From positions 50,689 to 114,688 of the forward strand of contig FXAI01000008.1 of the NCBI GenBank assembly GCA_900177435.1: a stretch of DNA of 64,000 nt. Reading direction: 5' to 3'. This document shows, one piece after another, positions 5,189 through 43,872 of the stretch. The position numbers and the translations under genes are program-made. Positions within the stretch are counted from its first letter, which is position 1; every line of letters begins with the position of its first letter. The notes under the pieces were generated by a model. The model worked only from the letters and a program-made list of their open reading frames with translations. It searched no databases and was not told the DNA's origin. The DNA comes from Alteromonadaceae bacterium Bs31. GTDB taxonomy: Bacteria; Pseudomonadota; Gammaproteobacteria; Pseudomonadales; Cellvibrionaceae.

Positions 5189-5989
5189 TTAAGCTGCATT
5201 CGCCGCCGCCAGTGGCTCCTGCGTAGGCTTCATCCACTCAACTTTATCGACAAAGTGCAGCAAGTTCAATTTGCCGGAATAATCTTCAATGAGGGCGGTA
5301 CAGCTCTCAACCCAATCGCCGGTGTTGGCATAGGTAAATCCATCGTGTATATCGAGATCGGCGGAGTGAATATGGCCACATACAACCCCGTCATATCCTT
5401 GTCGGCGAGCTTCTTCTATACACTGTTTTTTGTAGCGCTCTATGGCAGACCTGGCGCCGTGAACATTGCTTTTAATCTGGCCGGCAAGTGAGAAGTAAGG
5501 CCGGCCTGCCAGTTTGCGCAAGCGGTTGCCCCAGCGGTTAAGCCAGAGTAAAAAACAGTAGGCGATATCGCCGGTCATTTTGGTGAGCCAGTCAAACTGC
5601 ATATAAGCGTCCATGGCGTCGCCATGAAGTATCCAGAGCCGTTTACCATTGGCAGACTCGAAAACGTGCTCGTGCATAATTTCGATCGGGCCAAAGGTCT
5701 GGCCATCGAAACGGCGCATAGGGTCATCGTGGTTGCCGGGTATGTAAATAACGCGCGTACCTTTTTCCGCAAGTTCGTACAGCTTCAACAGGAGGTGGTA
5801 GTGTTCCTGGGGCCAGTAGACACGTTTTTTAAGAGACCATAAATCAACAATGTCGCCAACCAGGTACAGTGTTTCGCAACTGATGGAATCCAGGAATGTA
5901 TAGAGGTAGTCTGCCTTACAATCCTTAAAACCAAGGTGTACATCTGAAATCCATACGGTACGAGCATTCACATGCTTTGATACTGACAT
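5189..5989 (-). CDS. Calcineurin-like metallophosphoesterase of the LpxH-like UDP-2,3-diacylglucosamine hydrolase family.
   Basis: Motifs WISDVHLG, LYLVGDIVDLW and IYIPGNHDD. An ATG at 5987-5989 is preceded by a GGAGAAAGG RBS; the longer ORF-track start uses a non-ATG codon. Confidence 0.7.
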   Translation of the reverse strand: MSVSKHVNARTVWISDVHLGFKDCKADYLYTFLDSISCETLYLVGDIVDLWSLKKRVYWPQEHYHLLLKLYELAEKGTRVIYIPGNHDDPMRRFDGQTFGPIEIMHEHVFESANGKRLWILHGDAMDAYMQFDWLTKMTGDIAYCFLLWLNRWGNRLRKLAGRPYFSLAGQIKSNVHGARSAIERYKKQCIEEARRQGYDGVVCGHIHSADLDIHDGFTYANTGDWVESCTALIEDYSGKLNLLHFVDKVEWMKPTQEPLAAANAA

Positions 5990-6200
5990 GCCTTTCTCCG
6001 GATACAAATTAGGTATTCTCAAGGCCTTAGTGTCGTTAATGCAGATGACGGTTTGTTAACAGCAATATTAAGGTTTGGTTAAAGATGAGCGGGGCAGCAG
6101 GCAGGCTTAAACTTAAGCTGCGTAGATCATAAGCGTATGATTGCGCATAGCGATGCATGTGGGCGGCGCTATACCCGCGCCTCCCTTTCTGCCGCTCTTG

Positions 6201-7760
6201 CTATTTCAGCTCAACGACTACGATGGATTTTGCTGGCAAAGTGAGTACCAGCTCTCCTTTATCTGCCTTCGCAGAGAAAGCCTCAGGCTGGATATTTTCA
6301 GGCTTATCAAAGGTATTGTGAGTGTCCATATGCTTTGCCGTAAGAATACTGCCTTGAGCGGTTTTTATAGGCTCATTCGCTTTTACCTTAAGTTTTAGAG
6401 GCTTGCTCGGAAATGGATTTACCAGGGATAACCAGATCTTGCCATCCTTGCTTTCGGCTGCCGAAGCACTTAAGCCGGGAATGCGTTTGTCGTTGCTAGT
6501 GTAGTCGGGGCTGCCGGTAATATTGTATGCCAGAGTTTTCGCATCCTGAAAAGGAATGTACATTTTAAAGGTGTGGTAAGTGGGAGTGAGCAACATTTTT
6601 TCTTTGTCGGTGAGGATCATTGCCTGCAATACATTTACCATCTGTGCGATGTTGCTCATATGAATGCGTTCTGCATATTTGTGAAACACATTTAAATTAA
6701 CGGCTGCTACTACCGCATCACGTAAGGTGTTTTGCTGAAACAAGAAACCTGGGTTATCACCTTCCATGGTGTCGTACCAGGTGCCCCACTCATCAATATA
6801 CAAACCTATTGTTTTGTCCGGGTCATGTTCATCCAATACTGCGATATTGTCTTCGATAAATTTCTCGATTCTTAAGCTCTGCCATAAAGTGCTGAACCAC
6901 TCGTGTTCAGAAAAGTTTAAGGCAGCACCGTGTTTTTCCCAGTTGCCTGTTGGCAATGTGTAGTAGTGGTGGCTTATGGCGTCCATACGCAGGCTCCAGC
7001 TGGGTTTTATATTTTTTACCAGAGTTTCCGTCCAGATGGTCTCAGCTTCCGTGCCGCCACTGGCGATAAGTATGGGACGATTATCCGAAGGGGTTTTGAG
7101 GAAGGTAGCGTAGTGTTTGTATAAATCGCTATAGTACTGGGGAGTCATGTTGCCACCGCAGCCCCAGGACTCGTTGCCAATCGCGAAGTAATGTATTTTC
7201 CAAGGCTTGTCGCGGCCGTTGGCTCGGCGAAGCATCGCCAGGCTAGAGTCGCTGTCTGAAGTCATATATTCAAGCCAGGCAGCCATTTCACGCGGAGTGC
7301 CTGTGCCCAGATTGCCATTGATATAAACCTCTGCCTCCAGCATTTCTGCAAGTTCAAGAAATTCGTGAGTACCAAAAGCGTTGTCGTCGATGACACCGCC
7401 CCACGTGGTATTCACCGTTTTTTTGCGTTGATTGCGGGGACCGATACCATCTTGCCAGTGGTATTCATCGGCAAAACAGCCGCCGGGCCAGCGCAGTAAA
7501 GGCACTTGTAGCTCTTTAAGGGCTTTAAGAACGTCCTTTCGATAACCGTTTTTGTTCGGGATCCTGGACTTTTCTCCTACCCAGATACCTTCGTAAATAC
7601 CTCGGCCGAGGTGCTCCATAAACTGGCCGTATATATTGCGGTGAATAATTGGGCCTGGTTTTTTGGTGTCGATGGTGACAGTGATATGGGGCTCATCCGC
7701 GTGGCAGAGCAAGGCTAGAGTGCAGCACAGTGCAACACCCAGGGTTAATACGTGTTTCAT
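6201..7760 (-). CDS. abfA: Secreted alpha-L-arabinofuranosidase of glycoside hydrolase family 51.
   Basis: Signal peptide MKHVLTLGVALCCTLALLCHA. The catalytic-region sequence reads GQFMEHLGRGIYEGIW...LRWPGGCFADEYHWQDGIGP...YFAIGNESWGCGG. A GAAGG RBS precedes the ATG at 7758-7760. Confidence 0.85.
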   Translation of the reverse strand: MKHVLTLGVALCCTLALLCHADEPHITVTIDTKKPGPIIHRNIYGQFMEHLGRGIYEGIWVGEKSRIPNKNGYRKDVLKALKELQVPLLRWPGGCFADEYHWQDGIGPRNQRKKTVNTTWGGVIDDNAFGTHEFLELAEMLEAEVYINGNLGTGTPREMAAWLEYMTSDSDSSLAMLRRANGRDKPWKIHYFAIGNESWGCGGNMTPQYYSDLYKHYATFLKTPSDNRPILIASGGTEAETIWTETLVKNIKPSWSLRMDAISHHYYTLPTGNWEKHGAALNFSEHEWFSTLWQSLRIEKFIEDNIAVLDEHDPDKTIGLYIDEWGTWYDTMEGDNPGFLFQQNTLRDAVVAAVNLNVFHKYAERIHMSNIAQMVNVLQAMILTDKEKMLLTPTYHTFKMYIPFQDAKTLAYNITGSPDYTSNDKRIPGLSASAAESKDGKIWLSLVNPFPSKPLKLKVKANEPIKTAQGSILTAKHMDTHNTFDKPENIQPEAFSAKADKGELVLTLPAKSIVVVELK

Positions 7761-7785
7761 AGGGGCCTTCTGTATTTTTATGATT

Positions 7786-8331
7786 CTATTCGCACCAGTA
7801 CTCTGCTCGATACAGGCTTTTTGCGCAAATAACTTTGCTATCAAAGTTACCGCTTATACCTCTGCGCAATGATTTAAGCATCCAGGCATCCCTGTGCTTG
7901 TCTGCTATATGATAGGGGGCGCTGAGCCCGAAACGGTACGCAGGCTCAAAGCCGAAACGGGTGTAGTAGCGGGGATCTCCAAGAACGAAGACAATATCTA
8001 TCCCCTGTTCCTCCAGAAGGTGCAAGCCTCTGTGGACCAACGCAGAGCCGCAGCCCTGCTTTTGGTAAGCGGGAACAACAGCCAGAGGGGCGAGTAGAGA
8101 AATTTGCAGCCCGTGTTCACCTTCCAGCTCTGCGTGCGTGAACAGCACGTGGCCCACAGGGGTATCCTGTTTATAGGCCAGCAAGGAGAGTATTGGTGTT
8201 GCACTTGGGTCTGCCAGCAGGTTTTTTGTCAACTCGGCTTCTTCATTGGTTTCGAAGGCGGCTTGCTCAACGCTAACAATGTGCCCGAGCTGCTGCTCAC
8301 CGCCATGAATGATTTGAATGTCGTTATTCAT
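7786..8331 (-). CDS. GNAT family N-acetyltransferase.
   Basis: Acetyl-CoA binding motif QKQGCGSALV...GIDIVFVLGDPRYYTRFGF. In-frame ATG at 8329-8331. Confidence 0.75.
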   Translation of the reverse strand: MNNDIQIIHGGEQQLGHIVSVEQAAFETNEEAELTKNLLADPSATPILSLLAYKQDTPVGHVLFTHAELEGEHGLQISLLAPLAVVPAYQKQGCGSALVHRGLHLLEEQGIDIVFVLGDPRYYTRFGFEPAYRFGLSAPYHIADKHRDAWMLKSLRRGISGNFDSKVICAKSLYRAEYWCE

Positions 8332-33730: not shown

Positions 33731-34084
33731 TTATTGTTCTTTTATATCGTTCACAGGCGGCGTAGACAGGGCATCCACTATGAGCGCAGTGGCTATCACC
33801 GCGAATATAATACTGCCGGGATAAATGCGTTCAAAGGCGATAGCTGCGGAAGTAAACCAGAGTAAACAGCTAATTGGAATGATGGCGCTCAATATAATGA
33901 TGTCTTCACCCCAAATTTCTGCCAAGCTGCCGCTTATATAGAACACCAAGCCGAGTAAAATTAGCCAGGGTTCGGCGAATAGTGCGCCGAGTACCAGTGC
34001 CGCGATAAGTCCAAGAGAGCGATGCTCAATATATTTCGCTCCATAACCGTCCAATGGGGGGAGTTTAAATCCATAGTGTTTCAT
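33731..34084 (-). CDS. Small integral membrane protein, possibly YjfL/DUF350-like.
   Basis: 117 aa with four hydrophobic helices, positioned after a YjfJ-like PspA gene. The family assignment is by context only. Confidence 0.4.
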   Translation of the reverse strand: MKHYGFKLPPLDGYGAKYIEHRSLGLIAALVLGALFAEPWLILLGLVFYISGSLAEIWGEDIIILSAIIPISCLLWFTSAAIAFERIYPGSIIFAVIATALIVDALSTPPVNDIKEQ

Positions 34085-34197
34085 TCTGCTTCTCCTTTTG
34101 CTTTCTCCTGGAAATTTTTAAATGTGCCATCCGTGGCGTGTTACAGGCCTCCTGCCGTAAATCCCTTTGTTACTTCTCCTTTTCGCCTCCGTGCGAC

Positions 34198-34890
34198 CTA
34201 ATTGCTACTTTTTTTCTTTAATCGTTCCAGTACGTCTGCTGCGCCAGTAGCGGAGGGCGATATACCCGCTTTTTCAAGCTTTTCTTGCAGAGAGTCTTGC
34301 TGGCTTTCCTCTGCAAGTTCGTTGGCTGCTTTCATTTGCGCTGCTTTCAGTGCCTGTTTTTCCTTTATGCGCTCCAGTGAATCCATGGCGGTGCGCAGTT
34401 TGGAATTGGAGCCGCTGTGCCGTTCTGCTACAGCAGATTGAGCGCGCTGTACGCTTTCTGTGGCTTTAACGGTATCTATTTGCTGCTTTAATCGTTTGAT
34501 GTTTTGCTCTGCTGCTTTTATCGCGCGCCTTAAATCGTCGGCACTGCTGGCAAAACCCGTTGCAGCTTCTCCCTCTGTGCGATACTGGTTTTCGAGCGTC
34601 GCTATTTTTTCCGCCACTTCCAGAGCGAGCGCTTGATCATCCTTCTCCAGGGCCTGTACGGCATAGCCTTCATATTCTGTGATGTTCGTTTTTAATTGCG
34701 CGCATTTTTCTTCGGCGAGCTTTTGTCTGGCAATGATGGCCGTTAACCCGTCTCTGGATTGTCTCAGCTCTTCCGTAGCGTCTCGCACTTCCTGATCCAG
34801 TATGCGCAAGGCTTGGCTGTCTAGCACGGCTTCACCCGCTTCGTGGACACCGCCTCGTAAAGCGGTAATCATTTTCGCCCAGATATTCAT
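34198..34890 (-). CDS. PspA/IM30 (Vipp1/ESCRT-III-like) family protein, YjfJ-like.
   Basis: 230-aa all-helical protein. MNIWAKMITALRGG...LRILDQEVRDATEELRQ... matches the YjfJ/PspA N-terminal pattern and length. Confidence 0.8.
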   Translation of the reverse strand: MNIWAKMITALRGGVHEAGEAVLDSQALRILDQEVRDATEELRQSRDGLTAIIARQKLAEEKCAQLKTNITEYEGYAVQALEKDDQALALEVAEKIATLENQYRTEGEAATGFASSADDLRRAIKAAEQNIKRLKQQIDTVKATESVQRAQSAVAERHSGSNSKLRTAMDSLERIKEKQALKAAQMKAANELAEESQQDSLQEKLEKAGISPSATGAADVLERLKKKSSN

Positions 34891-34901
34891 TACATTCTCC
34901 T

Positions 34902-35540
34902 CTATGCCCTGGCATCCAGGGGGGTGGTTAATAAGTTGCTGTACGCTTCCGTTGCGTGGATAACGTTTGCAGCCAAGGTTTCGATTTCGAACAAGATGTT
35001 GGGTATTACAGAGGTGGCGCTCAGTGCACCGAACATCATGTAATAGCTCTTGCCGTCGCTTAGGGTGTCGAGGCTGATGGTGGAGAGCGGGAAGTACTTG
35101 TGAGTACGTAATACCGCGTCATTAAATTTGTTGGGGTCTTCCACATCCCCTGTTGGCCAGAGCACTGCTTCTACTACGATTTGCTCCCCGGCAGCTGTGA
35201 GGAAGAGTGGCAAATCGCCATACTCGCGCATGATGATGTGCAGTGTTGGCTCAACGCCATCAATCAGCTCAATATCGGCGTTGCCACTGGTGAACAGCTC
35301 TTCTTTTTTTAGCTCTTCACAAAGGCTTTCGCTTGACCAGCGCGGCAGGTTGATAGTTGTCATAGGCTTGTCTCCTGTATCCATGATCGGTTTTGGATTG
35401 ATATACCTTAGCTGCTTTTCTATGTTCGCAAGCAACTTGGCGTTCTCCGGGAGTATCCAGACTTCCTTTTTTACCAGGCCCATATCCCGCAGGCGCTGGC
35501 GATACTCTCGTTGGTAATGTGCAGATGACTTTGCTTTCAT
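34902..35540 (-). CDS. Conserved hypothetical protein that is first in the cluster (YjfI-like by position). Its N-terminus is basic and looks like a DNA-binding segment.
   Basis: MKAKSSAHYQREYRQRLRDMGLVKK resembles short basic DNA-binding leaders of small regulators. It is followed by an acidic domain of about 170 aa. The family is uncertain. Confidence 0.4.
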   Translation of the reverse strand: MKAKSSAHYQREYRQRLRDMGLVKKEVWILPENAKLLANIEKQLRYINPKPIMDTGDKPMTTINLPRWSSESLCEELKKEELFTSGNADIELIDGVEPTLHIIMREYGDLPLFLTAAGEQIVVEAVLWPTGDVEDPNKFNDAVLRTHKYFPLSTISLDTLSDGKSYYMMFGALSATSVIPNILFEIETLAANVIHATEAYSNLLTTPLDARA

Positions 35541-35613: not shown

Positions 35614-35826
35614 TTTTTTATAGCGATATTTCGCCTACTTTAAATTTCACACTATTCCACAGCGCTTGTTTGTGAATGGCCGGGGTTGCGCAATGTGCGA
35701 GGGTCACAAAGCCTGCGCTTGCTCGCGGGGGCGTTTTGTTCTGGGATGTCTGTCACTTCATTGCTTCCTTCAATGGCGCATTGTTTGGCTAAAGAAAAGG
35801 GCGTGCTCAGTGGGGTAGCACAGTAT

Positions 35827-38010
35827 ATGACCTTAAAAATAAAAGTATTAAGTCAGCTCGTTATTGTCATTTCTCTCGCCGCTTGTGGCGGTGGTTCCGG
35901 GTCCGCGCTGCCTGTAAATGATAACGGTAGTTCCACTTCGTCATCCAGCAGTTCTTCTTCCAGCTCTTCGGGGGTGAGTTTGCCTGGGCCCGAAGCCGTT
36001 AGTTCCAGTTCATCCGGCAGCTCTGCGGGCAGTGCTAGTTCATCCGGTTCCGGTTCTTCAAGTTCAGGCTCGACCAACAGTACCAGCTCATCATCTTCAA
36101 GCTCAGGCTCGTCCAACAGTACCAGCTCATCATCTTCAAGCTCAGGCTCGTCCAACAGTACCAGCTCATCATCTTCAAGCTCAAGCTCGTCCAGCAGTGC
36201 CAGTTCGTCATCTTCAAGCTCAAGTACTTCGTCTTCCGGTGGCGTAAGGGCATGCAGCGTCGGTTCTGGTGTAACCCGGTGGGCGGATAGTTGCGCTGCT
36301 CAAGCCACGAGCTGTGTGGCGGGAGAGTGGAGGGCGCCTAAGGATGGAGGCGACACAAATGCGCCGCTGCGGATGGAATCTGAACATTTTGCTATTTACT
36401 GGCCGGAGGGTACCTCAATTACCGAGGCGGATGCTGAACTTGCCGCGAATACTTTGGAGGGGATATGGGACAAGTACTTTGGGGCTCCCCTGTTTTTCCC
36501 GGAGCCATACTGCAGTTCAAGTGAAAAATGGAAGGCAGCGGTGCATTTTGATGATGATTTCCCGCTTTGGGGTGGGGGTTGGGCCCGTAACGGCATTGAT
36601 TATATGGGCATGTGGATAGGCCCGGGTGCCGCCAAGGATGCCTGGGGTTTGGCCCATGAATTTATGCATGGGGTGCAGTCTACCACGCAGGGTTTTTCGG
36701 GTTGTGGTGAGGCGGGCTGCTGGATTTATGAGAGCCACGCCAACTGGATGCCACACCAGATTTACCGAGATGATGTGCATTGCTCGGAAATGTTGGTGAA
36801 TGCACCGCACCTTTACTATGGCTCTAGCCGAAATCGCTATTGTAATTGGCAGTTTTTTGAATTTTTAAAAGACAAGCATTGCCCCTCTGCGGTTAATGAG
36901 ATGTGGTCTTACGATGCGCCTCCGAATGAGCGGGACCCCTGGCAGAAGCTAATGCTGAGCCGGGGTTGGGATATTGAAACCCTCAATGATCTTTTTGGTG
37001 AGTGGGCTATGCACAATGTTACCTGGGATTATCGAAACCCGGATGGCACTGATCAGGGAGAGGTTTATCGCCAAAAATATGGCCGCATAAATGAACCGCC
37101 CGGGCCCAGAACCGAGCGTCGCCTGAGGTTGGCGCAGGTGGAAAACCTTGATGAGCATTGGGCTGAGAACCGCCGCTTTGTTTCTCCATTTTACTGGGCT
37201 CCTCAGCGCTGGGGCTATAACCTTGTTCGGCTCTATCCAGAGCGGGGTGCCAGTAGCGTGACCGTTCGCTTTAGAGGCGTTGTTCAGCCCAGTGCGAATT
37301 CCGGGTGGCGCTGGGGCTTGGTGGCTACGAATGGCAGTCTTACGGCTCCTCAGTACAGTGAGTTGCAGGCTGGCGCCGAGGGTGAGCTCTCTTTTTGTAT
37401 TGATGGCGATGAAGAGCTGTATTTGGTTGTTCTTGCCGCCCCCACGCTGTACCAGCCGATTTCCTGGGATAGGGAGGCGGACGGTCAGGCTTATCCGTCT
37501 ATTTATCGCTACCCTTACATGATCGAGCTGCAGGGTGCCTGGCCCCAGGGTTTTGAGGGCGGGCAGCGCAGTGCCTGCCCTGCGGGCACGGTGCGGCACA
37601 GTAACGGTGGTGGTTGTGCTCCAGCAGCAACAGCAGCAACTGTATATGTGGGGCCGTACGCAAAGATTCTTGGTGGCGAGGTATCGGGTGATGCACGCAT
37701 TGAAGATCATGCCACTGTTGTTAGTGGTACGGTGAGTGGCGGTACCGTTGGTGCTCTGAGTTTAATTGGTGTGGAGAATCGGGCCAGCTTTAATGTCATC
37801 GATAAGGCCGTGGTTCAGTCTGTTTTTTATCCTCTCGGTTGGTTTGCGAATGATCTCACCGCCAGTGGCGATGCCCGACTTCTTGGGGACTTGGAGGTGC
37901 ATTCCTCCAAGTCTGCCAATACTCATTACGGGCTGGTCAGTGATGAGGGGCTTGGTGTGCCATACGCGGATGAGCTAACTGTCGAGCCACCCTATCAATG
38001 GCGCGACTAG
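35827..38010 (+). CDS. Secreted lipoprotein with a long poly-serine linker and a C-terminal HExxH zinc-metallopeptidase-like domain.
   Basis: Lipoprotein signal MTLKIKVLSQLVIVISLAACGGG, about 100 aa of Ser-rich linker, then GLAHEFMHGVQSTTQ. The ORF-track start at 35686 adds 47 non-signal residues and is less likely. Confidence 0.65.
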   Translation: MTLKIKVLSQLVIVISLAACGGGSGSALPVNDNGSSTSSSSSSSSSSSGVSLPGPEAVSSSSSGSSAGSASSSGSGSSSSGSTNSTSSSSSSSGSSNSTSSSSSSSGSSNSTSSSSSSSSSSSSASSSSSSSSTSSSGGVRACSVGSGVTRWADSCAAQATSCVAGEWRAPKDGGDTNAPLRMESEHFAIYWPEGTSITEADAELAANTLEGIWDKYFGAPLFFPEPYCSSSEKWKAAVHFDDDFPLWGGGWARNGIDYMGMWIGPGAAKDAWGLAHEFMHGVQSTTQGFSGCGEAGCWIYESHANWMPHQIYRDDVHCSEMLVNAPHLYYGSSRNRYCNWQFFEFLKDKHCPSAVNEMWSYDAPPNERDPWQKLMLSRGWDIETLNDLFGEWAMHNVTWDYRNPDGTDQGEVYRQKYGRINEPPGPRTERRLRLAQVENLDEHWAENRRFVSPFYWAPQRWGYNLVRLYPERGASSVTVRFRGVVQPSANSGWRWGLVATNGSLTAPQYSELQAGAEGELSFCIDGDEELYLVVLAAPTLYQPISWDREADGQAYPSIYRYPYMIELQGAWPQGFEGGQRSACPAGTVRHSNGGGCAPAATAATVYVGPYAKILGGEVSGDARIEDHATVVSGTVSGGTVGALSLIGVENRASFNVIDKAVVQSVFYPLGWFANDLTASGDARLLGDLEVHSSKSANTHYGLVSDEGLGVPYADELTVEPPYQWRD
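36061..36216 (+). repeat. Perfect 39-bp tandem repeat with three identical units and one degenerate unit, encoding SSGSSNSTSSSSS within the poly-Ser linker.
   Basis: agctcaggctcgtccaacagtaccagctcatcatcttca is repeated identically at 36100-36138 and 36139-36177. The first unit (36061-36099) differs at two positions and the fourth is degenerate. Confidence 0.85.
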
Positions 38011-38079: not shown

Positions 38080-39465
38080 CTACTCGCCGAACTCCACGGC
38101 AACGCGATTGTTTCTGCTTGCAGCGGCATTCCACTCGGCTGCGCTGAGATAGCGGGTCATTGTGGGGTATTCGTAGCGGGGTTCTTCGAGCCCGCTGGTG
38201 AGCACGTCCACCTCGATAGTGCCTTCCTTGAGAGGAGCTGCATTTTGCTCGAAATTCATATACGGCAGGCTTAAGTAGTCGCCCACCGAAAAATCCTGAT
38301 CAAGGTCTGACAGCAGTGTGCAATCCTGGGCCGGGCTTGCCGGGTCTGCAAGTTGCCAATTGCCAGCGCTGTCTGTTTCCAGGCAGAAGTTGCCAAAATG
38401 AATGTTAAGCGCCAGGTTTCCGCTGAAGCCGGCGCTCGCAAGGCGGTAAACAAGATTGCTCACTTTCAGCATCTGTTGCTCGTCTAAAGGCAGCGCGTTG
38501 AAAGCAAATTGCATGTCGGCTTCCAGTGCCCAGCTGATTGTGCTCATCAGGCCCCAGTTGTTTTGGGGTGTCAGGCCTGGAGATTTGATGGAGCCGAGGC
38601 TCTCGGTAAGCGATGAGATAAGTTGCTGGTTGTTGGTGTTAAGATTCACCAGCTCATCGTAATCGTCATTAATTTGTTTTAGTTCATTCTTGGTACTAAA
38701 CAGTTCGTAGGCCAGCAGGGCCAAGCCGAGGAAGATTAAAAATAATAGTGAGCTGGAGACGAAAGCGCTGCGGCGCTGTTCGGCATTCATTTCTGCGTTT
38801 ACCACGGATAGCGGTACATCACCAACGGTTGCTTCTTTCTCGCTGGTTTTTTCCATTTCTGCGCTAAGGCGCCTGACGATAAAGCGTGAGTTGTCTGTGA
38901 TTTGCTGGCGCACGTCTGAAACATGCATTTCAAACAGCCTTGCAACCTGAGAGCGAACTTGTTCCAGAGACGCATCTTCAGGCTCCTGGGGGGCGGCAGG
39001 AGCAGCTACTTCGGGTGGCTTGGGCGTATCGTGTTCTGGTGGCTGAGGGTCTATTTCTGTACTGTCTTGTTGTTGCGGTGTTTCTGATTTTTTTCTGGGT
39101 ACAATCTTCAGGCTGGAAAGTGCACGTTCCAGGCTGGAGGGCTTTATGACTTCTTTGGAGAGAATATCAAGAGCCCCCAGCGCGCGCGCCTGGCCCACAT
39201 AAACATCGCCTTTTTGTGCGGTGTACATAATCACCGGAATCATGGCGGTATTGGCGTTGGCTTTGATTATTTTCAGCGCTTCGAAGCCATCCATACCCTC
39301 CATGTGGTGATCCATGAAGATCACTGCTGGTGTTCGGTAGGTGAGGTAGCCTAAAGCTTCTTCAGCACTGAAGGCAGCGTCGACAATAAGATCGTAGCGA
39401 GATAGCATCTTTTTGAGACGAAGCTGCGCTGTTTTGGAGTCGTCGACCACCAGTACTCGTTGCAT
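38080..39465 (-). CDS. Hybrid protein with an N-terminal receiver (REC) domain, a Pro-rich linker, a single TM helix and an extracytoplasmic domain of about 220 aa of unknown function.
   Basis: REC motifs VLVVDDS, IFMDHHMEGMDG and the T/K of VIMYTAQKGD. Linker PQPPEHDTPKPPEVAAPAAPQEP, TM helix FVSSSLLFLIFLGLALLAY, and a C-terminal ...NNRVAVEFGE. Confidence 0.65.
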   Translation of the reverse strand: MQRVLVVDDSKTAQLRLKKMLSRYDLIVDAAFSAEEALGYLTYRTPAVIFMDHHMEGMDGFEALKIIKANANTAMIPVIMYTAQKGDVYVGQARALGALDILSKEVIKPSSLERALSSLKIVPRKKSETPQQQDSTEIDPQPPEHDTPKPPEVAAPAAPQEPEDASLEQVRSQVARLFEMHVSDVRQQITDNSRFIVRRLSAEMEKTSEKEATVGDVPLSVVNAEMNAEQRRSAFVSSSLLFLIFLGLALLAYELFSTKNELKQINDDYDELVNLNTNNQQLISSLTESLGSIKSPGLTPQNNWGLMSTISWALEADMQFAFNALPLDEQQMLKVSNLVYRLASAGFSGNLALNIHFGNFCLETDSAGNWQLADPASPAQDCTLLSDLDQDFSVGDYLSLPYMNFEQNAAPLKEGTIEVDVLTSGLEEPRYEYPTMTRYLSAAEWNAAASRNNRVAVEFGE

Positions 39466-39775
39466 GTGTGTTGGGCCTTGTTATTTTATAGTTTATCTGG
39501 AGCTAAATGCGGCGATTATGCAGCTAATTTAATCAATCTTGCCCCCTTGATGCTAGTGGTAAAGGGGATTAATGTGAGCTTGTTGTAGCTTTTTAGCTTC
39601 AAGCGTCGGCAATATTTACAGTCGCTGTAATCTTGTGCTGGACCTCCTGCTTGTATCGCAGCTGCAAATAAGCCCATGCTGTTTAGAGTGTAGAATATAC
39701 CGCAGCGAAAAAACCAAGTGTTACTGCGGTCTTTCTACAATTCATTCTTACTTATGCTACTACCTCGTACCTCGC

Positions 39776-41032
39776 ATGCTAGAGCTTACAGAACATACCA
39801 GTAACAACCGTCAGCGCATTCTCAGTCGAATTCTGGTTTTGCGGGTAATTGCTCTGCTTGTAGCCTTGGCTGTGCTGTTGGGCTTCCAGTTCTATTTGCA
39901 GCGTGAGCTTAATTATAGCTTGCTCTACAGCATCGCAGTCATGGTGTTAATTTACACGGTATTTACCTTGCTGCGGTTGAGGAGAAGCAAGCCCGTTACG
40001 GATATCGAGCTGTTTGTCCATTTGCTAATGGATGGCATTATTTTATTGGTGCTGGTTTTTTATTCTGGCAGGGCCAGTAATCCATTCATTTATTACTTAC
40101 TGGTATTGGTTGCAATAAGTGCGGCCATATTCAATGGCAGGCTCGCATGGAGTTTTGCCGCTCTGTCGGTATTCGCTTACACCGCTCTTTTGTATGTTGA
40201 TATCGGTGCTCACCTTCATCATATGTTTACTGATTTCCAGTTGCATCTGGTAGGCATGTGGGTCAATTTTGTGGGTAGCACTATGCTAATCAGTTATTTC
40301 GTTTCTACATTGGCAACGGCCCTGCGGGATAGGGAAGTACGTCTGGCTAAAGCCAGGGAGGCAACGCTTAAAAACGAACAGTTAATTGGCATCGGTGCTT
40401 TGGCTGCGTCTACAATGCATGCGCTTGGTACACCATTATCTACCATGGCGGTTACCCTCAGTGAGCTTAAACACGATCAGGTACTTGATAGTGAAAATGC
40501 AGATCTACTGCTTTCTCAAATTGAGCGATGCAAACAGACAATGGGTAAGCTCGCTCTTATTGCAGAGAGTAAAAAGCCGGACGCCCAGATAGCTTTTGTG
40601 GGTGATCTAATAGAAGAGTTGGAAGAGCACTATCATCTGCTTTGCCCCAGAATTATGCCGTGCTATGACATAGAAGGCAGCGCTCGAGATAAAGCGGTGA
40701 ATGAAAGTGTGCTCCTGCTTTATGCCTTAATCAACCTGGTTGATAATTCTATTCGAGCAGCCAAAGCGGAAGTGCTGGTAAAGGTTGCGGTGCAGGAAGA
40801 TGTGCTGATAATCACCATCGTCGATGACGGCCCTGGTGTTCCCGCTGAAATGTTGGAAGATTTTGGCAAGCCAAATTTTTCCAGGCAAAACGGTGGTTTG
40901 GGTATTGGCGTTTTTTTGGCGAATACCACTTTGGAGAAGCTGGACGGTAGTATTGTTTTGTTTAACCCCCAAGAGAGCAGGAGCGGGAAAACAACGGTTG
41001 TTGTGGAGCTGCCCTTAGTCAAAAATGAGTGA
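39776..41032 (+). CDS. regB: Membrane sensor histidine kinase, RegB/PrrB/ActS-like.
   Basis: Five to six N-terminal TM helices, H-box ASTMHALGTPLS and an HATPase_c region (LINLVDNSIRA...DDGPGV...GGLGIG). Start taken at the ATG at 39776; the 8-bp overlap with the downstream regulator suggests coupling. Confidence 0.7.
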   Translation: MLELTEHTSNNRQRILSRILVLRVIALLVALAVLLGFQFYLQRELNYSLLYSIAVMVLIYTVFTLLRLRRSKPVTDIELFVHLLMDGIILLVLVFYSGRASNPFIYYLLVLVAISAAIFNGRLAWSFAALSVFAYTALLYVDIGAHLHHMFTDFQLHLVGMWVNFVGSTMLISYFVSTLATALRDREVRLAKAREATLKNEQLIGIGALAASTMHALGTPLSTMAVTLSELKHDQVLDSENADLLLSQIERCKQTMGKLALIAESKKPDAQIAFVGDLIEELEEHYHLLCPRIMPCYDIEGSARDKAVNESVLLLYALINLVDNSIRAAKAEVLVKVAVQEDVLIITIVDDGPGVPAEMLEDFGKPNFSRQNGGLGIGVFLANTTLEKLDGSIVLFNPQESRSGKTTVVVELPLVKNE

Positions 41033-41561
41033 TAAAAAATTATTTTATTTAGAAGACGATGAAGTGCTGGCACAGGTGAGTTGCAGAGCTTTGCAAAAGC
41101 GTGGTTACGCTGTATCGCACTTTCTAAGCCTCGCCGACGCTGAGGTTTGCGGTAATTTGGCGGGTTTTCAGTTCGCCTTGCTGGACTTAAAGCTGGGAGA
41201 TGGCAATTCGTTACCCTTGATCGACCGCTTGCATCAGGCAAATAGCAATATGAATATTGTCGTGCTCACCGCTTATGCCAGTATTGCCACAGCCGTGCAG
41301 GCAGTTAAAAGTGGGGCCGCCAATTATCTCGCCAAGCCCGCCACAATAGACGAAGTAGTACGTGCCTTTGAGGGGCAAGTGAGTGAGGCGGAAAATGTAG
41401 AAGAGCTGAACGATGAGATGTCGCTGCGTCGCAGGGAGTGGGAAACCATTCAGGCTGCACTTGCTGCTAACAATGGCAATGTGTCGGCCACCGCCCGACA
41501 GCTCAAAATGCATCGTCGAACATTGCAGCGAAAGTTACAGAAAAAGCCCGTTAGTGAATAA
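41025..41561 (+). CDS. regA: Response regulator of the RegA/PrrA/ActR family (REC domain plus Fis-type HTH).
   Basis: REC motifs (YLEDDE, ALLDLKLGDG) and the highly characteristic C-terminal ...ATARQLKMHRRTLQRKLQKKP. Confidence 0.8.
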   Translation: MSDKKLFYLEDDEVLAQVSCRALQKRGYAVSHFLSLADAEVCGNLAGFQFALLDLKLGDGNSLPLIDRLHQANSNMNIVVLTAYASIATAVQAVKSGAANYLAKPATIDEVVRAFEGQVSEAENVEELNDEMSLRRREWETIQAALAANNGNVSATARQLKMHRRTLQRKLQKKPVSE

Positions 41562-41679: not shown

Positions 41680-43023
41680 ATGAAATCCAAATTTACCGAA
41701 GGCTCTATATTTCGTCATGTTTGCGTGATGACATTTGCCTCTACTGCGGGTTTGCTTTCCCTGTTTTTTGTGGATCTGGTGGATATGTACTGGCTTAGCC
41801 TGCTGGGAGTAGTAGAGCTGGCCGCTGCGATCGGCTATGCAGGTTCCATTCTGTTTTTTACCCTGTCTCTTTCTATTGGCCTTTCCATTGGGTGCGGGGC
41901 CTTGGTCTCACAGTCCGTTGGGCGAGGGCAGGTCGATGAGACCAGCGCTTTAGTGGGCAACCTTTTTACCATCATTTTTTCTATTACTTTACCGGTATCC
42001 CTTGCGGTACTTTTTGCAAAAAAATGGTTGCTTACTGTGCTGGGGGCAAGTGGGCCTGCTCATGAATATGCCAGCGCCTATCTGCAAATAATTTTACCCA
42101 GTTTACCCTTATTAGGTTTAGCGATGGCCGGTGGAGGGGTTTTGCGTGCGCTTGGTAACGCCAAGGAGGCAATGTATTTAACCTTGCTGGGCGGGTTTGT
42201 AAATGCGGTGCTGGACCCGGTTTTTATCTTTGGTTTGGGCTGGGGGATAGAAGGCGCAGCAGTGGCTTCAGTGTTTGCGCGTATTGCGATGCTTCTGTAT
42301 GGGATTTATCGTATAGCCCTGGTGTATCAACTGATTCAATGGCCAGTGTGGCGCCGCATGGCGGCTGATGCCCAAGAGTATTTTTCTACCGCGCTTCCTG
42401 CCGTACTTACCAATCTGGCAACGCCAATTGGTGTTGCCTACGTTACCGCGATGATGGCGCAGTTTGGCGATAGCGCCGTAGCGGGTAACGCAATTATTTC
42501 AAAAGTACAGCCTTTGGCTTTCGCGGGGCTGTTTGCACTTTCTGCTTCCATTGGGCCGATTGCGGGACAGAATTTTGGCGCTAGAAATTTTGATCGCGTA
42601 TTGGAGACCTTGTACAGCAGTATTAAATTTATCGCCCTCTATTCCGCAGTGGCTTGCCTTGTGATGTTTTTACTGGTTGATCTTCTGGTGGTGGCATTTA
42701 AGGCAAAAGATGAAGCAGAGCAATTGATTCGATGGTTCTGTTATGGTTTAAGCAGTATGTTCTTTTTTGGCGGTATTACCTTTTGCACCAATGCCTTGTT
42801 TAACAATCTTCGCATGGCTCACTGGGCAACCATATTCAACTTCTCAAAAGCAACAATTTTTACCATGCCATTCGTTTTAGTGGGTGCAAAATGGGGCGGT
42901 CCGGTTGGTATAATGGTGGGATTGTATATTGGTGCTGCGTTGGTGGCGGTAGCAGGCTTGGTTATGGCGTATTACAAAATTTCCCGCTTAGGGGCGATGG
43001 AGCAATCCGCAAACGTTTCTTAA
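41680..43023 (+). CDS. MATE family multidrug/sodium efflux transporter.
   Basis: 447 aa with 12 predicted TM helices and a MATE-like duplicated topology. Confidence 0.8.
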   Translation: MKSKFTEGSIFRHVCVMTFASTAGLLSLFFVDLVDMYWLSLLGVVELAAAIGYAGSILFFTLSLSIGLSIGCGALVSQSVGRGQVDETSALVGNLFTIIFSITLPVSLAVLFAKKWLLTVLGASGPAHEYASAYLQIILPSLPLLGLAMAGGGVLRALGNAKEAMYLTLLGGFVNAVLDPVFIFGLGWGIEGAAVASVFARIAMLLYGIYRIALVYQLIQWPVWRRMAADAQEYFSTALPAVLTNLATPIGVAYVTAMMAQFGDSAVAGNAIISKVQPLAFAGLFALSASIGPIAGQNFGARNFDRVLETLYSSIKFIALYSAVACLVMFLLVDLLVVAFKAKDEAEQLIRWFCYGLSSMFFFGGITFCTNALFNNLRMAHWATIFNFSKATIFTMPFVLVGAKWGGPVGIMVGLYIGAALVAVAGLVMAYYKISRLGAMEQSANVS

Positions 43024-43137
43024 GCTTGTGAATAAATAGATCATCCTGAGCAGTTAATGCGCCGCCCTTATCCTCTGAGTTTGTGCGGATGCAGGCCAGT
43101 ACTCAATTATTACGATGAAACTTTAACGGAGAATACC

Positions 43138-43872
43138 ATGAACAAAAACGTCTTGAATTTCACGGCAATAGCGCTGTTTGGCCTATGTGCTCCACTGGCA
43201 GTTAATGCCGGCTCCTATCAGGGCGAACTGAATGCCACGCTCGCCAATGTAGACGTGGATGGTGGAAGCAGCGAAAACCTTTGGGGCATAGGTGGTGAGT
43301 TTTATTTTGCTCCGGTAAACACAGAGGGGCATCCTCTGGCTGAAGCGGCATATCTTGAGTGGGCTTCGGGCGTTCATGCAAGTTATGTCAGTCAGGATGG
43401 CGGCGATGTATCCTCCACCAATATAGGTGCGAAGGGTTATATTCCCAACTCCATTATATATCTCGGCGCAGATTACACCCGCGTTGATTATGATAATGGG
43501 GATAGCAATACTTGGTCTTTTACCGGTGGCGTTCGGCTGATTGAAAACCTGCTATTAACGACCACCTACAACGACGATACCGGTTACGACCTAAACGTAA
43601 GCGCTAAATATGTCGCAAAAATTTCAGGTAATCAGGCAGTTAATATCTACGGTAGTTTTGTCAACGACGACAACAATAGCTTTACGCTAGGTGGCGATTA
43701 TTACTTTACGCCGAAAACAGGTGTGGGCGTTAAAATTGATGATTATGGTTCCACCAGCGATTATACCTTTAATGTCAGCCACTTTTTTACCGAGGAGCTC
43801 TACTTGCGTGGGTTTTACACCAGTGGTGAATACAGTGATACCTTTGGCCTTAAGGGCGGCTGGCGCTTCTGA
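43138..43872 (+). CDS. Small outer-membrane beta-barrel protein (porin-like).
   Basis: Signal peptide MNKNVLNFTAIALFGLCAPLAVNA, alternating beta-strand pattern and a C-terminal GGWRF. RBS GGAGA before the ATG at 43138. Confidence 0.55.
   Translation: MNKNVLNFTAIALFGLCAPLAVNAGSYQGELNATLANVDVDGGSSENLWGIGGEFYFAPVNTEGHPLAEAAYLEWASGVHASYVSQDGGDVSSTNIGAKGYIPNSIIYLGADYTRVDYDNGDSNTWSFTGGVRLIENLLLTTTYNDDTGYDLNVSAKYVAKISGNQAVNIYGSFVNDDNNSFTLGGDYYFTPKTGVGVKIDDYGSTSDYTFNVSHFFTEELYLRGFYTSGEYSDTFGLKGGWRF

Follow-up and report, generated by a model that had tools for sequence, protein, structure and literature searches.

The stretch of Alteromonadaceae bacterium Bs31 DNA analyzed here comprises 64,000 nucleotides of contig FXAI01000008.1 (positions 50,689 to 114,688 of the forward strand; hereafter the window, whose own numbering is used throughout). 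Our subject is a single gene within it, located at 38080-39465 on the minus strand, which encodes a membrane-anchored response regulator of 461 residues. The open reading frame (ORF), taken from a program-made list, starts with ATG and is complete, with its stop codon at 38080-38082, exactly as had been given in a preliminary description of the locus prepared from the sequence alone. It is not a chance reading frame, since more than 120 full-length homologues, with E values down to 1e-219, were recovered when 5.8 billion proteins were searched; the same search returned an identical (100%) protein from an 'Alteromonadaceae' (Teredinibacter-group) assembly. The product is a bitopic inner-membrane protein whose N-terminus lies inside and whose C-terminus lies outside. 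AlphaFold2 models were obtained for the full-length protein (predicted local distance difference test score, pLDDT, 85; predicted template modelling score, pTM, 0.41) and for its C-terminal part (pLDDT 88).

The receiver domain and the cytoplasmic part

The N-terminal 120 residues (39106-39465, minus strand) form a cytoplasmic receiver (REC) domain. Pfam Response_reg (PF00072) matches residues 4-113 with an E value of 2.8e-20, its score of 73 bits exceeding the cutoff of 30.2. It is the only domain that a Pfam scan of the 461-residue protein gave, and NCBIfam returned only partial matches, confined to REC, to many regulator families. The complete active site is present, consisting of the phospho-acceptor D52, the acidic pair D8/D9, T82, and K104, and these five residues are invariant across 80 homologues. 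K104 directly follows strand beta5 in the usual 'D-x-L-x-K' context, and K108-P109 form a further conserved pair. The domain is modelled as a (beta/alpha)5 fold with pLDDT values of 89-97. The intact D/D/T/K receiver of the preliminary description is therefore borne out and, judged by its REC profile and active-site residues, the protein is a response regulator by domain.

Following REC is a linker (residues 121-164; 38974-39105, minus strand) in which 11 Pro and 10 Asp or Glu are found among 44 residues. It is predicted to be disordered (pLDDT about 40, below 50), shows no conservation, and varies in length among homologues; as a Pro-rich linker, it had already been correctly recognized. The next segment, residues 165-208 (38842-38973, minus strand), is modelled as a helix with pLDDT values of 83-87 and carries the family motif Q-[IV]-[AS]-R-L-F-E-x-H-I-A-x-V-R ... 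F-x-x-R-R-L. Eleven of its residues (Q173, R176, L177, F178, E179, H181, I182, A183, V185, R186, and R199) are at least 90% conserved, and in per-column counts R198 is found in 107 of 120 sequences. Because its hydrophobic period is 3.6-3.8, we take this helix to be amphipathic rather than a heptad coiled coil. It matches no known domain. That it shows the same degree of conservation as the REC core implies that it takes part in a specific interaction, and helix 165-208 is probably the element on which interactions of the family chiefly depend. The cytoplasmic part ends with a juxtamembrane segment (residues 209-232; 38770-38841, minus strand), in which a semi-conserved DxPLSV motif is followed by the basic pair R231-R232 immediately before the membrane; a K or R occupies position 232 in 80 of 120 sequences, and residues 210-228 have pLDDT values of 42-47.

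The membrane helix and the periplasmic part

Hydropathy analysis finds a single hydrophobic segment, at residues 233-256 (38698-38769, minus strand), with a Kyte-Doolittle 19-residue maximum of 2.44, and exactly one such peak is present in 216 of 224 full-length homologues, in agreement with the single transmembrane helix initially proposed. The modelled helix is continuous over residues 222-291 and thus includes both the transmembrane segment and a periplasmic stalk (257-291), which has a weak hydrophobic periodicity of 3.5-3.6 and is followed by a short linker (292-303) of about 12 residues whose length varies through the family. Stalk and linker together (residues 257-303) correspond to 38557-38697 on the minus strand, and the stalk is helical in both models. 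Exactly two Cys residues follow the transmembrane helix in 223 of 224 homologues, and in 190 of 224 none precedes it; two Cys confined to the C-terminal side is the pattern expected of a periplasmic disulfide. Since REC must be cytoplasmic, there is a single transmembrane helix, and the Cys pattern fits the periplasm, we place the C-terminal part there. The extracytoplasmic domain of the preliminary description therefore stands as to its existence and its periplasmic location, but its size does not: it comprises 205 residues (257-461) rather than about 220, and these divide into a helical stalk of about 35 residues, the linker of about 12, and a globular domain of 158.

The globular domain (residues 304-461; 38083-38556, minus strand) is modelled with pLDDT values of 89-98. 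Its invariant residues are W312, G349, C361, C382, W445, and N446, it ends in a C-terminal NNRxxxxF motif, and C361 and C382 probably form a disulfide. In the AlphaFold2 model, and at the level of the fold only, the domain has the beta/alpha sandwich of OmpA_C-like peptidoglycan-binding domains, from which it diverges: in place of helix alpha2 there is a beta-hairpin with short helices, and this is the segment that bears the invariant Cys pair. Sequence comparisons gave no corresponding signal. Pfam, searched at E values of up to 10, had no match over the C-terminal part in the query or in 26 family members, and the family profile found no OmpA-like chain among PDB sequences. When aligned with hhalign to the E. 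coli Pal and OmpA C-terminal sequences, the profile gave probabilities of 0.4% and 1.7%, respectively, which are not significant, although the alignment to the OmpA C-terminal sequence does pair the expected beta1-alpha1 elements. Comparison of the C-terminus with OmpA/MotB-like folds, which had been suggested at the outset, thus yielded a fold resemblance in the model but no significant sequence profile.

In canonical OmpA-like domains, the carboxylate of diaminopimelate is held by a conserved Asp and a conserved Arg, which in A. baumannii OmpA are Asp271 and Arg286. No column of residues 257-461 contains an Asp or Arg that is at least 90% conserved, so peptidoglycan binding in the canonical mode is unsupported, and the conservation pattern makes it improbable that the periplasmic module attaches to peptidoglycan in the OmpA manner. 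Relative to the OmpA_C-like domains as a group (Pal, the OmpA C-terminal domain, OprF, PorE, YiaD, and YfiB; PF00691), the domain described here therefore differs in having no detectable sequence relationship, no conserved candidates for the diaminopimelate contacts, and a rebuilt alpha2 region, and in being fused to a cytoplasmic REC domain. We also note that no bona fide OmpA-family gene was found in the window or its flanks. Residues 121-461 are covered by no Pfam or NCBIfam model, and the C-terminal domain and the cytoplasmic helix are both candidates for new Pfam families.

A widespread family in which the fusion is conserved

Full-length homologues of 441-492 residues, with 40-74% identity, are found in Teredinibacter, Agarilytica, Saccharophagus, Marinagarivorans, Reinekea, Thalassocella, and Agaribacterium. 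They are annotated merely as 'response regulator' or as generic CheY/PleD-type proteins, and REC is the sole Pfam domain recorded for them. To assess how far the C-terminal domain extends, a profile of its 204 residues was scored against 1.84 billion cluster representatives, and 681 clusters (at 50% identity) were matched at E values of up to 1e-3, 148 of them at up to 1e-30. Among the 150 matches listed, 138 were new, and all 104 of these with at least 390 residues carry REC. The shorter members are heterogeneous, and several start within REC, the linker, or the conserved helix. We considered whether some might be genuine REC-less forms of the C-terminal domain and rejected this, as both of the short members that were looked up begin at contig edges and are thus fragments. 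On this evidence, REC and the C-terminal domain are an obligate fusion, conserved as a single unit.

A scan of one genome per GTDB species extended the family to at least 484 relatives, with 28-51% identity in full-length matches, from Cellvibrionaceae, Candidatus Thiodiazotropha, Sedimenticolaceae, Woeseiaceae, Steroidobacteraceae, Arenicella, Marinimicrobium, Cellvibrio, and Paucimonas and other Oxalobacteraceae. As judged from these sequences, many Gammaproteobacteria and some Burkholderiales keep this architecture, and in most cases no kinase gene is close to it. The preliminary description had called it rare, and it is indeed unusual among response regulators, but it is also the hallmark of a sizeable conserved family. 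We found no description of a REC-transmembrane-OmpA-like regulator in open full text; papers available only by subscription lie outside this coverage, and a brief earlier mention is possible. The REC-transmembrane-periplasmic architecture is, then, an unusual one for response regulators and characterizes a widespread family for which we found no prior description. The family is large enough for comparative work and has members in cultivable organisms (Teredinibacter turnerae, Marinagarivorans algicola, Paucimonas lemoignei, Cellvibrio fontiphilus, and Marinimicrobium agarilyticum), which makes the question of its function directly testable.

We also note that conserved antisense ORFs of 120-140 residues lie inside the gene in 53 of the loci compared below; these were rejected as genes and regarded as shadows of the coding sequence.

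Comparison with known systems

Several characterized systems share individual features with this protein. MotB, PomB, MotS, ZorB, and TssL-TagL have the same topology and are among the structural matches of the C-terminal model. The family described here differs from them in that its transmembrane helix has no conserved Asp, there is no partner gene of the MotA, ZorA, or TssM type, and its cytoplasmic part is a 230-residue REC-linker-helix module where theirs is a short peptide. Stand-alone or orphan CheY-like regulators are similar in having intact REC chemistry, no DNA-binding or enzymatic output, and usually no adjacent kinase; in contrast, the protein encoded in the window is anchored in the membrane and has a conserved 340-residue extension that reaches into the periplasm.

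LapD resembles it in functional logic alone, as a cytoplasmic signal-reading module joined to a non-enzymatic periplasmic output domain (PMC3032553). In LapD, a degenerate EAL domain reads cyclic di-GMP (c-di-GMP), there are two transmembrane helices and a rigidly coupling HAMP domain, and a periplasmic domain of the LapD_MoxY_N fold binds the protease LapG (PMC3032553); Pfam detected REC only in the window protein, with no HAMP, GGDEF-EAL, or LapD_MoxY_N. The landmark proteins of the HubP/FimV type are closer in layout, as they too have a single transmembrane helix flanked by helical segments, a periplasmic domain of a cell-wall-binding type, and interaction modules displayed on a long, flexible, acidic region in the cytoplasm (PMC8789113). 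HubP, however, is oriented the other way, its N-terminal LysM domain being periplasmic, and it lacks both REC and a phosphorylation input; conversely, no LysM or TPR domain was detected by Pfam in the window protein.

Genomic neighborhood and the link to RegB/RegA

The response-regulator gene is divergent from a RegB-like kinase gene on its upstream side and convergent with an Svx-like gene on its downstream side, so it is monocistronic. The kinase and the regulator gene that follows it are on the plus strand, at 39635 or 39776 to 41032 and at 41025-41561, respectively. The best NCBIfam match of the kinase is ActS/PrrB/RegB (185 bits, under the cutoff of 350), and that of the second protein, a REC-HTH_8 regulator, is ActR/PrrA/RegA (153 bits, under the cutoff of 250); because both scores are under the curated cutoffs, we refer to the pair as RegB/RegA-like and not as equivalogs. 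The kinase ORF is listed from a GTG at 39635, but the ATG at 39776, which gives a protein of 418 residues comparable with the 410-432 of its orthologues, is the probable start. RegB has a quinone-site motif, GGXXNPF, and a Cys (Cys265) between the H-box and the ATPase domain (PMC3000548); the kinase encoded here has GRASNPF, with Arg in place of the second Gly, and a Cys likewise located between H-box and ATPase domain. At its stop codon, the kinase gene shares 8 nucleotides (41025-41032) with the beginning of the RegA-like gene. This points to translational coupling of the two genes that does not involve the divergent response-regulator gene.

The intergenic region between the response-regulator gene and the kinase ATG spans 39466-39775. 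A promoter and terminator scan of the locus was uninformative: the sole match to a promoter-like consensus, at 39380-39408, lies within the coding sequence of the response regulator and is not above chance.

The divergent position of the gene relative to the RegB/RegA-like pair, as the preliminary description had it, is confirmed in the window, and the orthologues of T. turnerae and T. purpureus likewise have the regBA-MatE arrangement beside them. The arrangement is missing beside the orthologues of T. waterburyi, Teredinibacter sp. KSP-S5-2, Agarilytica, Reinekea, and Saccharophagus. To put this on a broader footing, ORFs were clustered over 85 loci, the window and 84 related ones, each taken with up to 8 kb of flanking sequence on either side; some flanks are clipped by contig ends, and about 58 of the 80 loci from the genome scan have the full 8-kb upstream flank. 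RegB/RegA homologues were found in only one of the 84 related loci, that of T. turnerae, and among about 90 loci overall a regBA-like neighbor is common only to the window, T. turnerae, and T. purpureus. In the 85 loci, phmmer run with the kinase core as query detected no further kinase-like ORF close to the gene beyond the Teredinibacter group, and the only gene family present in all of these loci is that of the response regulator itself, no neighbor family being conserved. With neither a conserved neighbor nor a kinase in most loci, the gene is best regarded as an orphan regulator. Linkage to regB and regA homologues is not conserved over the loci compared; the adjacency is a local feature, and it is weak evidence for a donor relationship. 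The proposal that the RegB-like kinase is the phosphodonor thus does not hold up well, given that it was drawn from an adjacency kept elsewhere only in T. turnerae and T. purpureus.

Other recurrent neighbors were considered and set aside. A PAS-GGDEF-EAL gene lies within 8 kb in 18 of the 85 loci, which we estimate to be close to chance for such abundant families, and a general link to c-di-GMP was rejected because the adjacency reflects one or two clade-level events. About nine loci of the Woeseiaceae type have a (HAMP-)PAS-GGDEF-EAL gene upstream of the orthologue and divergent from it, a weak hint of c-di-GMP, and in T. waterburyi a REC-PAS-GGDEF-EAL gene is located just downstream (5766-8261 of that locus). 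Synteny with aprBA in Thiodiazotropha and with nirB in Saccharophagus and Marinagarivorans was likewise dismissed as clade synteny only. In Thiodiazotropha and Sedimenticolaceae, the ORFs upstream of the orthologue, of 157-177 and about 660 residues, are those that, judging by their sequences, we take to be AprB and AprA (adenylylsulfate reductase); the orthologue there is also downstream of a gene for a CxxCxxCC-domain protein (confirmed with Pfam), with no obvious functional link.

Possible modes of signaling

How might a receiver domain be used in a protein of this design? We tentatively favor, at somewhat less than an even chance, an envelope-anchored orphan response regulator that signals from the inside out. 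A kinase or phosphotransferase encoded elsewhere would phosphorylate D52, the adjacent RegB-like kinase being just one candidate donor, and only in the window organism and two Teredinibacter species. Phosphorylation would alter the surface of REC and how it associates with itself, as phosphorylation does elsewhere among REC proteins, or else the interaction of REC with helix 165-208. The signal would then be passed on through the oligomeric state or through partner binding, involving helix 165-208 and the membrane-spanning helix with its stalk, and the engagement of the periplasmic OmpA-like module with the cell wall or another envelope component would be altered. We propose coupling through oligomeric state or partners, and not through a rigid piston, because the linkers are flexible. 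LapD sets a precedent, in logic, for inside-out signaling by a membrane-spanning receptor (PMC3032553). The more general proposition, that the family is a widespread class of response regulators with periplasmic output in which REC phosphorylation sets the oligomeric state and hence the binding of the disulfide-stabilized OmpA-fold module to the wall or to some noncanonical ligand in the envelope, we consider unlikely, at perhaps the upper end of what that word covers. If true, it would amount to two-component signaling from the inside out to the envelope, without transcription. In nearly all accounts, response regulators are switches in the cytoplasm whose targets are DNA, enzymes, or motors. 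A conserved family in which an intact REC domain is tied to a periplasmic fold of the cell-wall-anchor type would extend two-component signaling to the envelope, either as direct post-translational control or as spatial anchoring there.

A number of observations weigh against inside-out signaling. The disordered segments at residues 121-164 and about 209-221 make coupling across the membrane indirect, and the full-length model, with its pTM of 0.41, does not define the geometry between domains. The OmpA-like assignment has no significant profile support from PDB, Pfam, Pal, or the OmpA C-terminal domain, and the positive-inside bias around the transmembrane helix is weak (2.0 versus 1.7 K+R). 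Finally, REC and the cytoplasmic helix are more conserved than the periplasmic domain, a pattern that a cytoplasmic output fits at least as well as a periplasmic one. The output may therefore be on either side of the membrane: either fits, and conservation supports the two about equally.

If the output is cytoplasmic, the periplasmic domain could be a constitutive anchor that holds the protein in the envelope, possibly at one particular place, as the LysM domain does for HubP, and the phosphorylated REC domain would expose or hide helix 165-208 such that a partner is recruited or released in the cytoplasm or at the membrane. This anchor-only scaffold is a substantial possibility, if a doubtful one. 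It accommodates the conservation pattern, in which REC and helix 165-208 rank highest and the periplasmic domain is only moderately conserved, and it makes use of the long flexible tethers, which suit a fishing-line arrangement. The helix itself, with its period of 3.6-3.8 and many invariant polar residues, is of a kind usual for binding surfaces rather than for coiled coils, and HubP provides a precedent for a periplasmic peptidoglycan-binding domain joined through a single transmembrane helix to cytoplasmic partner-binding modules (PMC8789113). The partner, however, cannot be named without a conserved neighbor to point to it, and the anchoring itself is only putative, the canonical peptidoglycan-binding Asp and Arg not being conserved. 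The signal might also run in the reverse direction, with the periplasmic domain sensing the wall or envelope and altering the accessibility of REC to a kinase or phosphatase, such that the protein would be a phosphate sink or a connector at the membrane that serves a different two-component pathway. An orphan REC domain with intact chemistry and no DNA-binding or enzymatic output is compatible with this, as are an OmpA-like fold that faces the wall and the scarcity of cognate kinase genes nearby in most genomes. But the flexible linkers weaken coupling in that direction too, a simple sink would have no need of a near-invariant helix 165-208, and gene context that would support it was not found, all of which leaves outside-in modulation improbable.

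Two further readings start from resemblances noted above. The protein could serve the neighboring RegB-like redox kinase as a second substrate, one bound to the membrane, and so link the quinone or redox state to an envelope response; its divergent position beside the regB/regA-like genes, seen in T. turnerae and T. purpureus as well as in the window, and the retention of RegB hallmarks by the kinase (GRASNPF for GGXXNPF and the Cys between H-box and ATPase domain) speak for this. We nevertheless consider it distinctly improbable, because the adjacency is absent in five related lineages, two of them within Teredinibacter, and is shared by T. turnerae only among the 84 related loci, because no other kinase-like ORF was detected by the gene outside the Teredinibacter group, and because the kinase already has a co-transcribed RegA-like partner whose start codon overlaps its own stop codon. 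An N-terminal REC domain might instead have been added to a stator or energy-transducer subunit of the MotB/PomB/ExbD/TolR type. The topology is that of MotB, with the N-terminus inside, one transmembrane helix, a periplasmic helix, and a C-terminal OmpA-like domain, but the conserved transmembrane Asp is lacking, the sole acidic residue of the helix (E254) is Q or H in most homologues, and no MotA/ExbB/TolQ-like gene is adjacent in the window and no neighbor family is conserved in the 85 loci; such a role is thus highly improbable. Envelope-anchored inside-out signaling is therefore the reading that we retain, with the tentativeness already expressed.

Other genes at the locus

The remaining genes around the response regulator are described here for completeness. 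The convergent gene, at 35686-38010 on the plus strand, encodes a 774-residue protein of the Svx/AvrXca family (DUF6055, E=1.3e-69; NF040510, 560 bits against a cutoff of 625), whose N-terminus resembles that of a lipoprotein and leads into a poly-Ser/Gly linker of about 110 residues. In T. turnerae and T. purpureus, ahpC/ahpF-like genes are found where the window has this gene. Farther along, at 33731-35540 on the minus strand and two genes away from the response regulator, is a cluster that resembles an envelope-stress module and encodes a small membrane ORF of 117 residues with no Pfam match, a 230-residue PspA/IM30 homologue, and a 212-residue DUF2170 protein. On the other side, the RegB/RegA-like pair is followed at 41680-43872 on the plus strand by a MATE efflux gene and a gene of the Porin_7 family. 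The regBA-MatE block is common to T. turnerae and T. purpureus, and a Porin_7 gene is also present at the T. turnerae locus.

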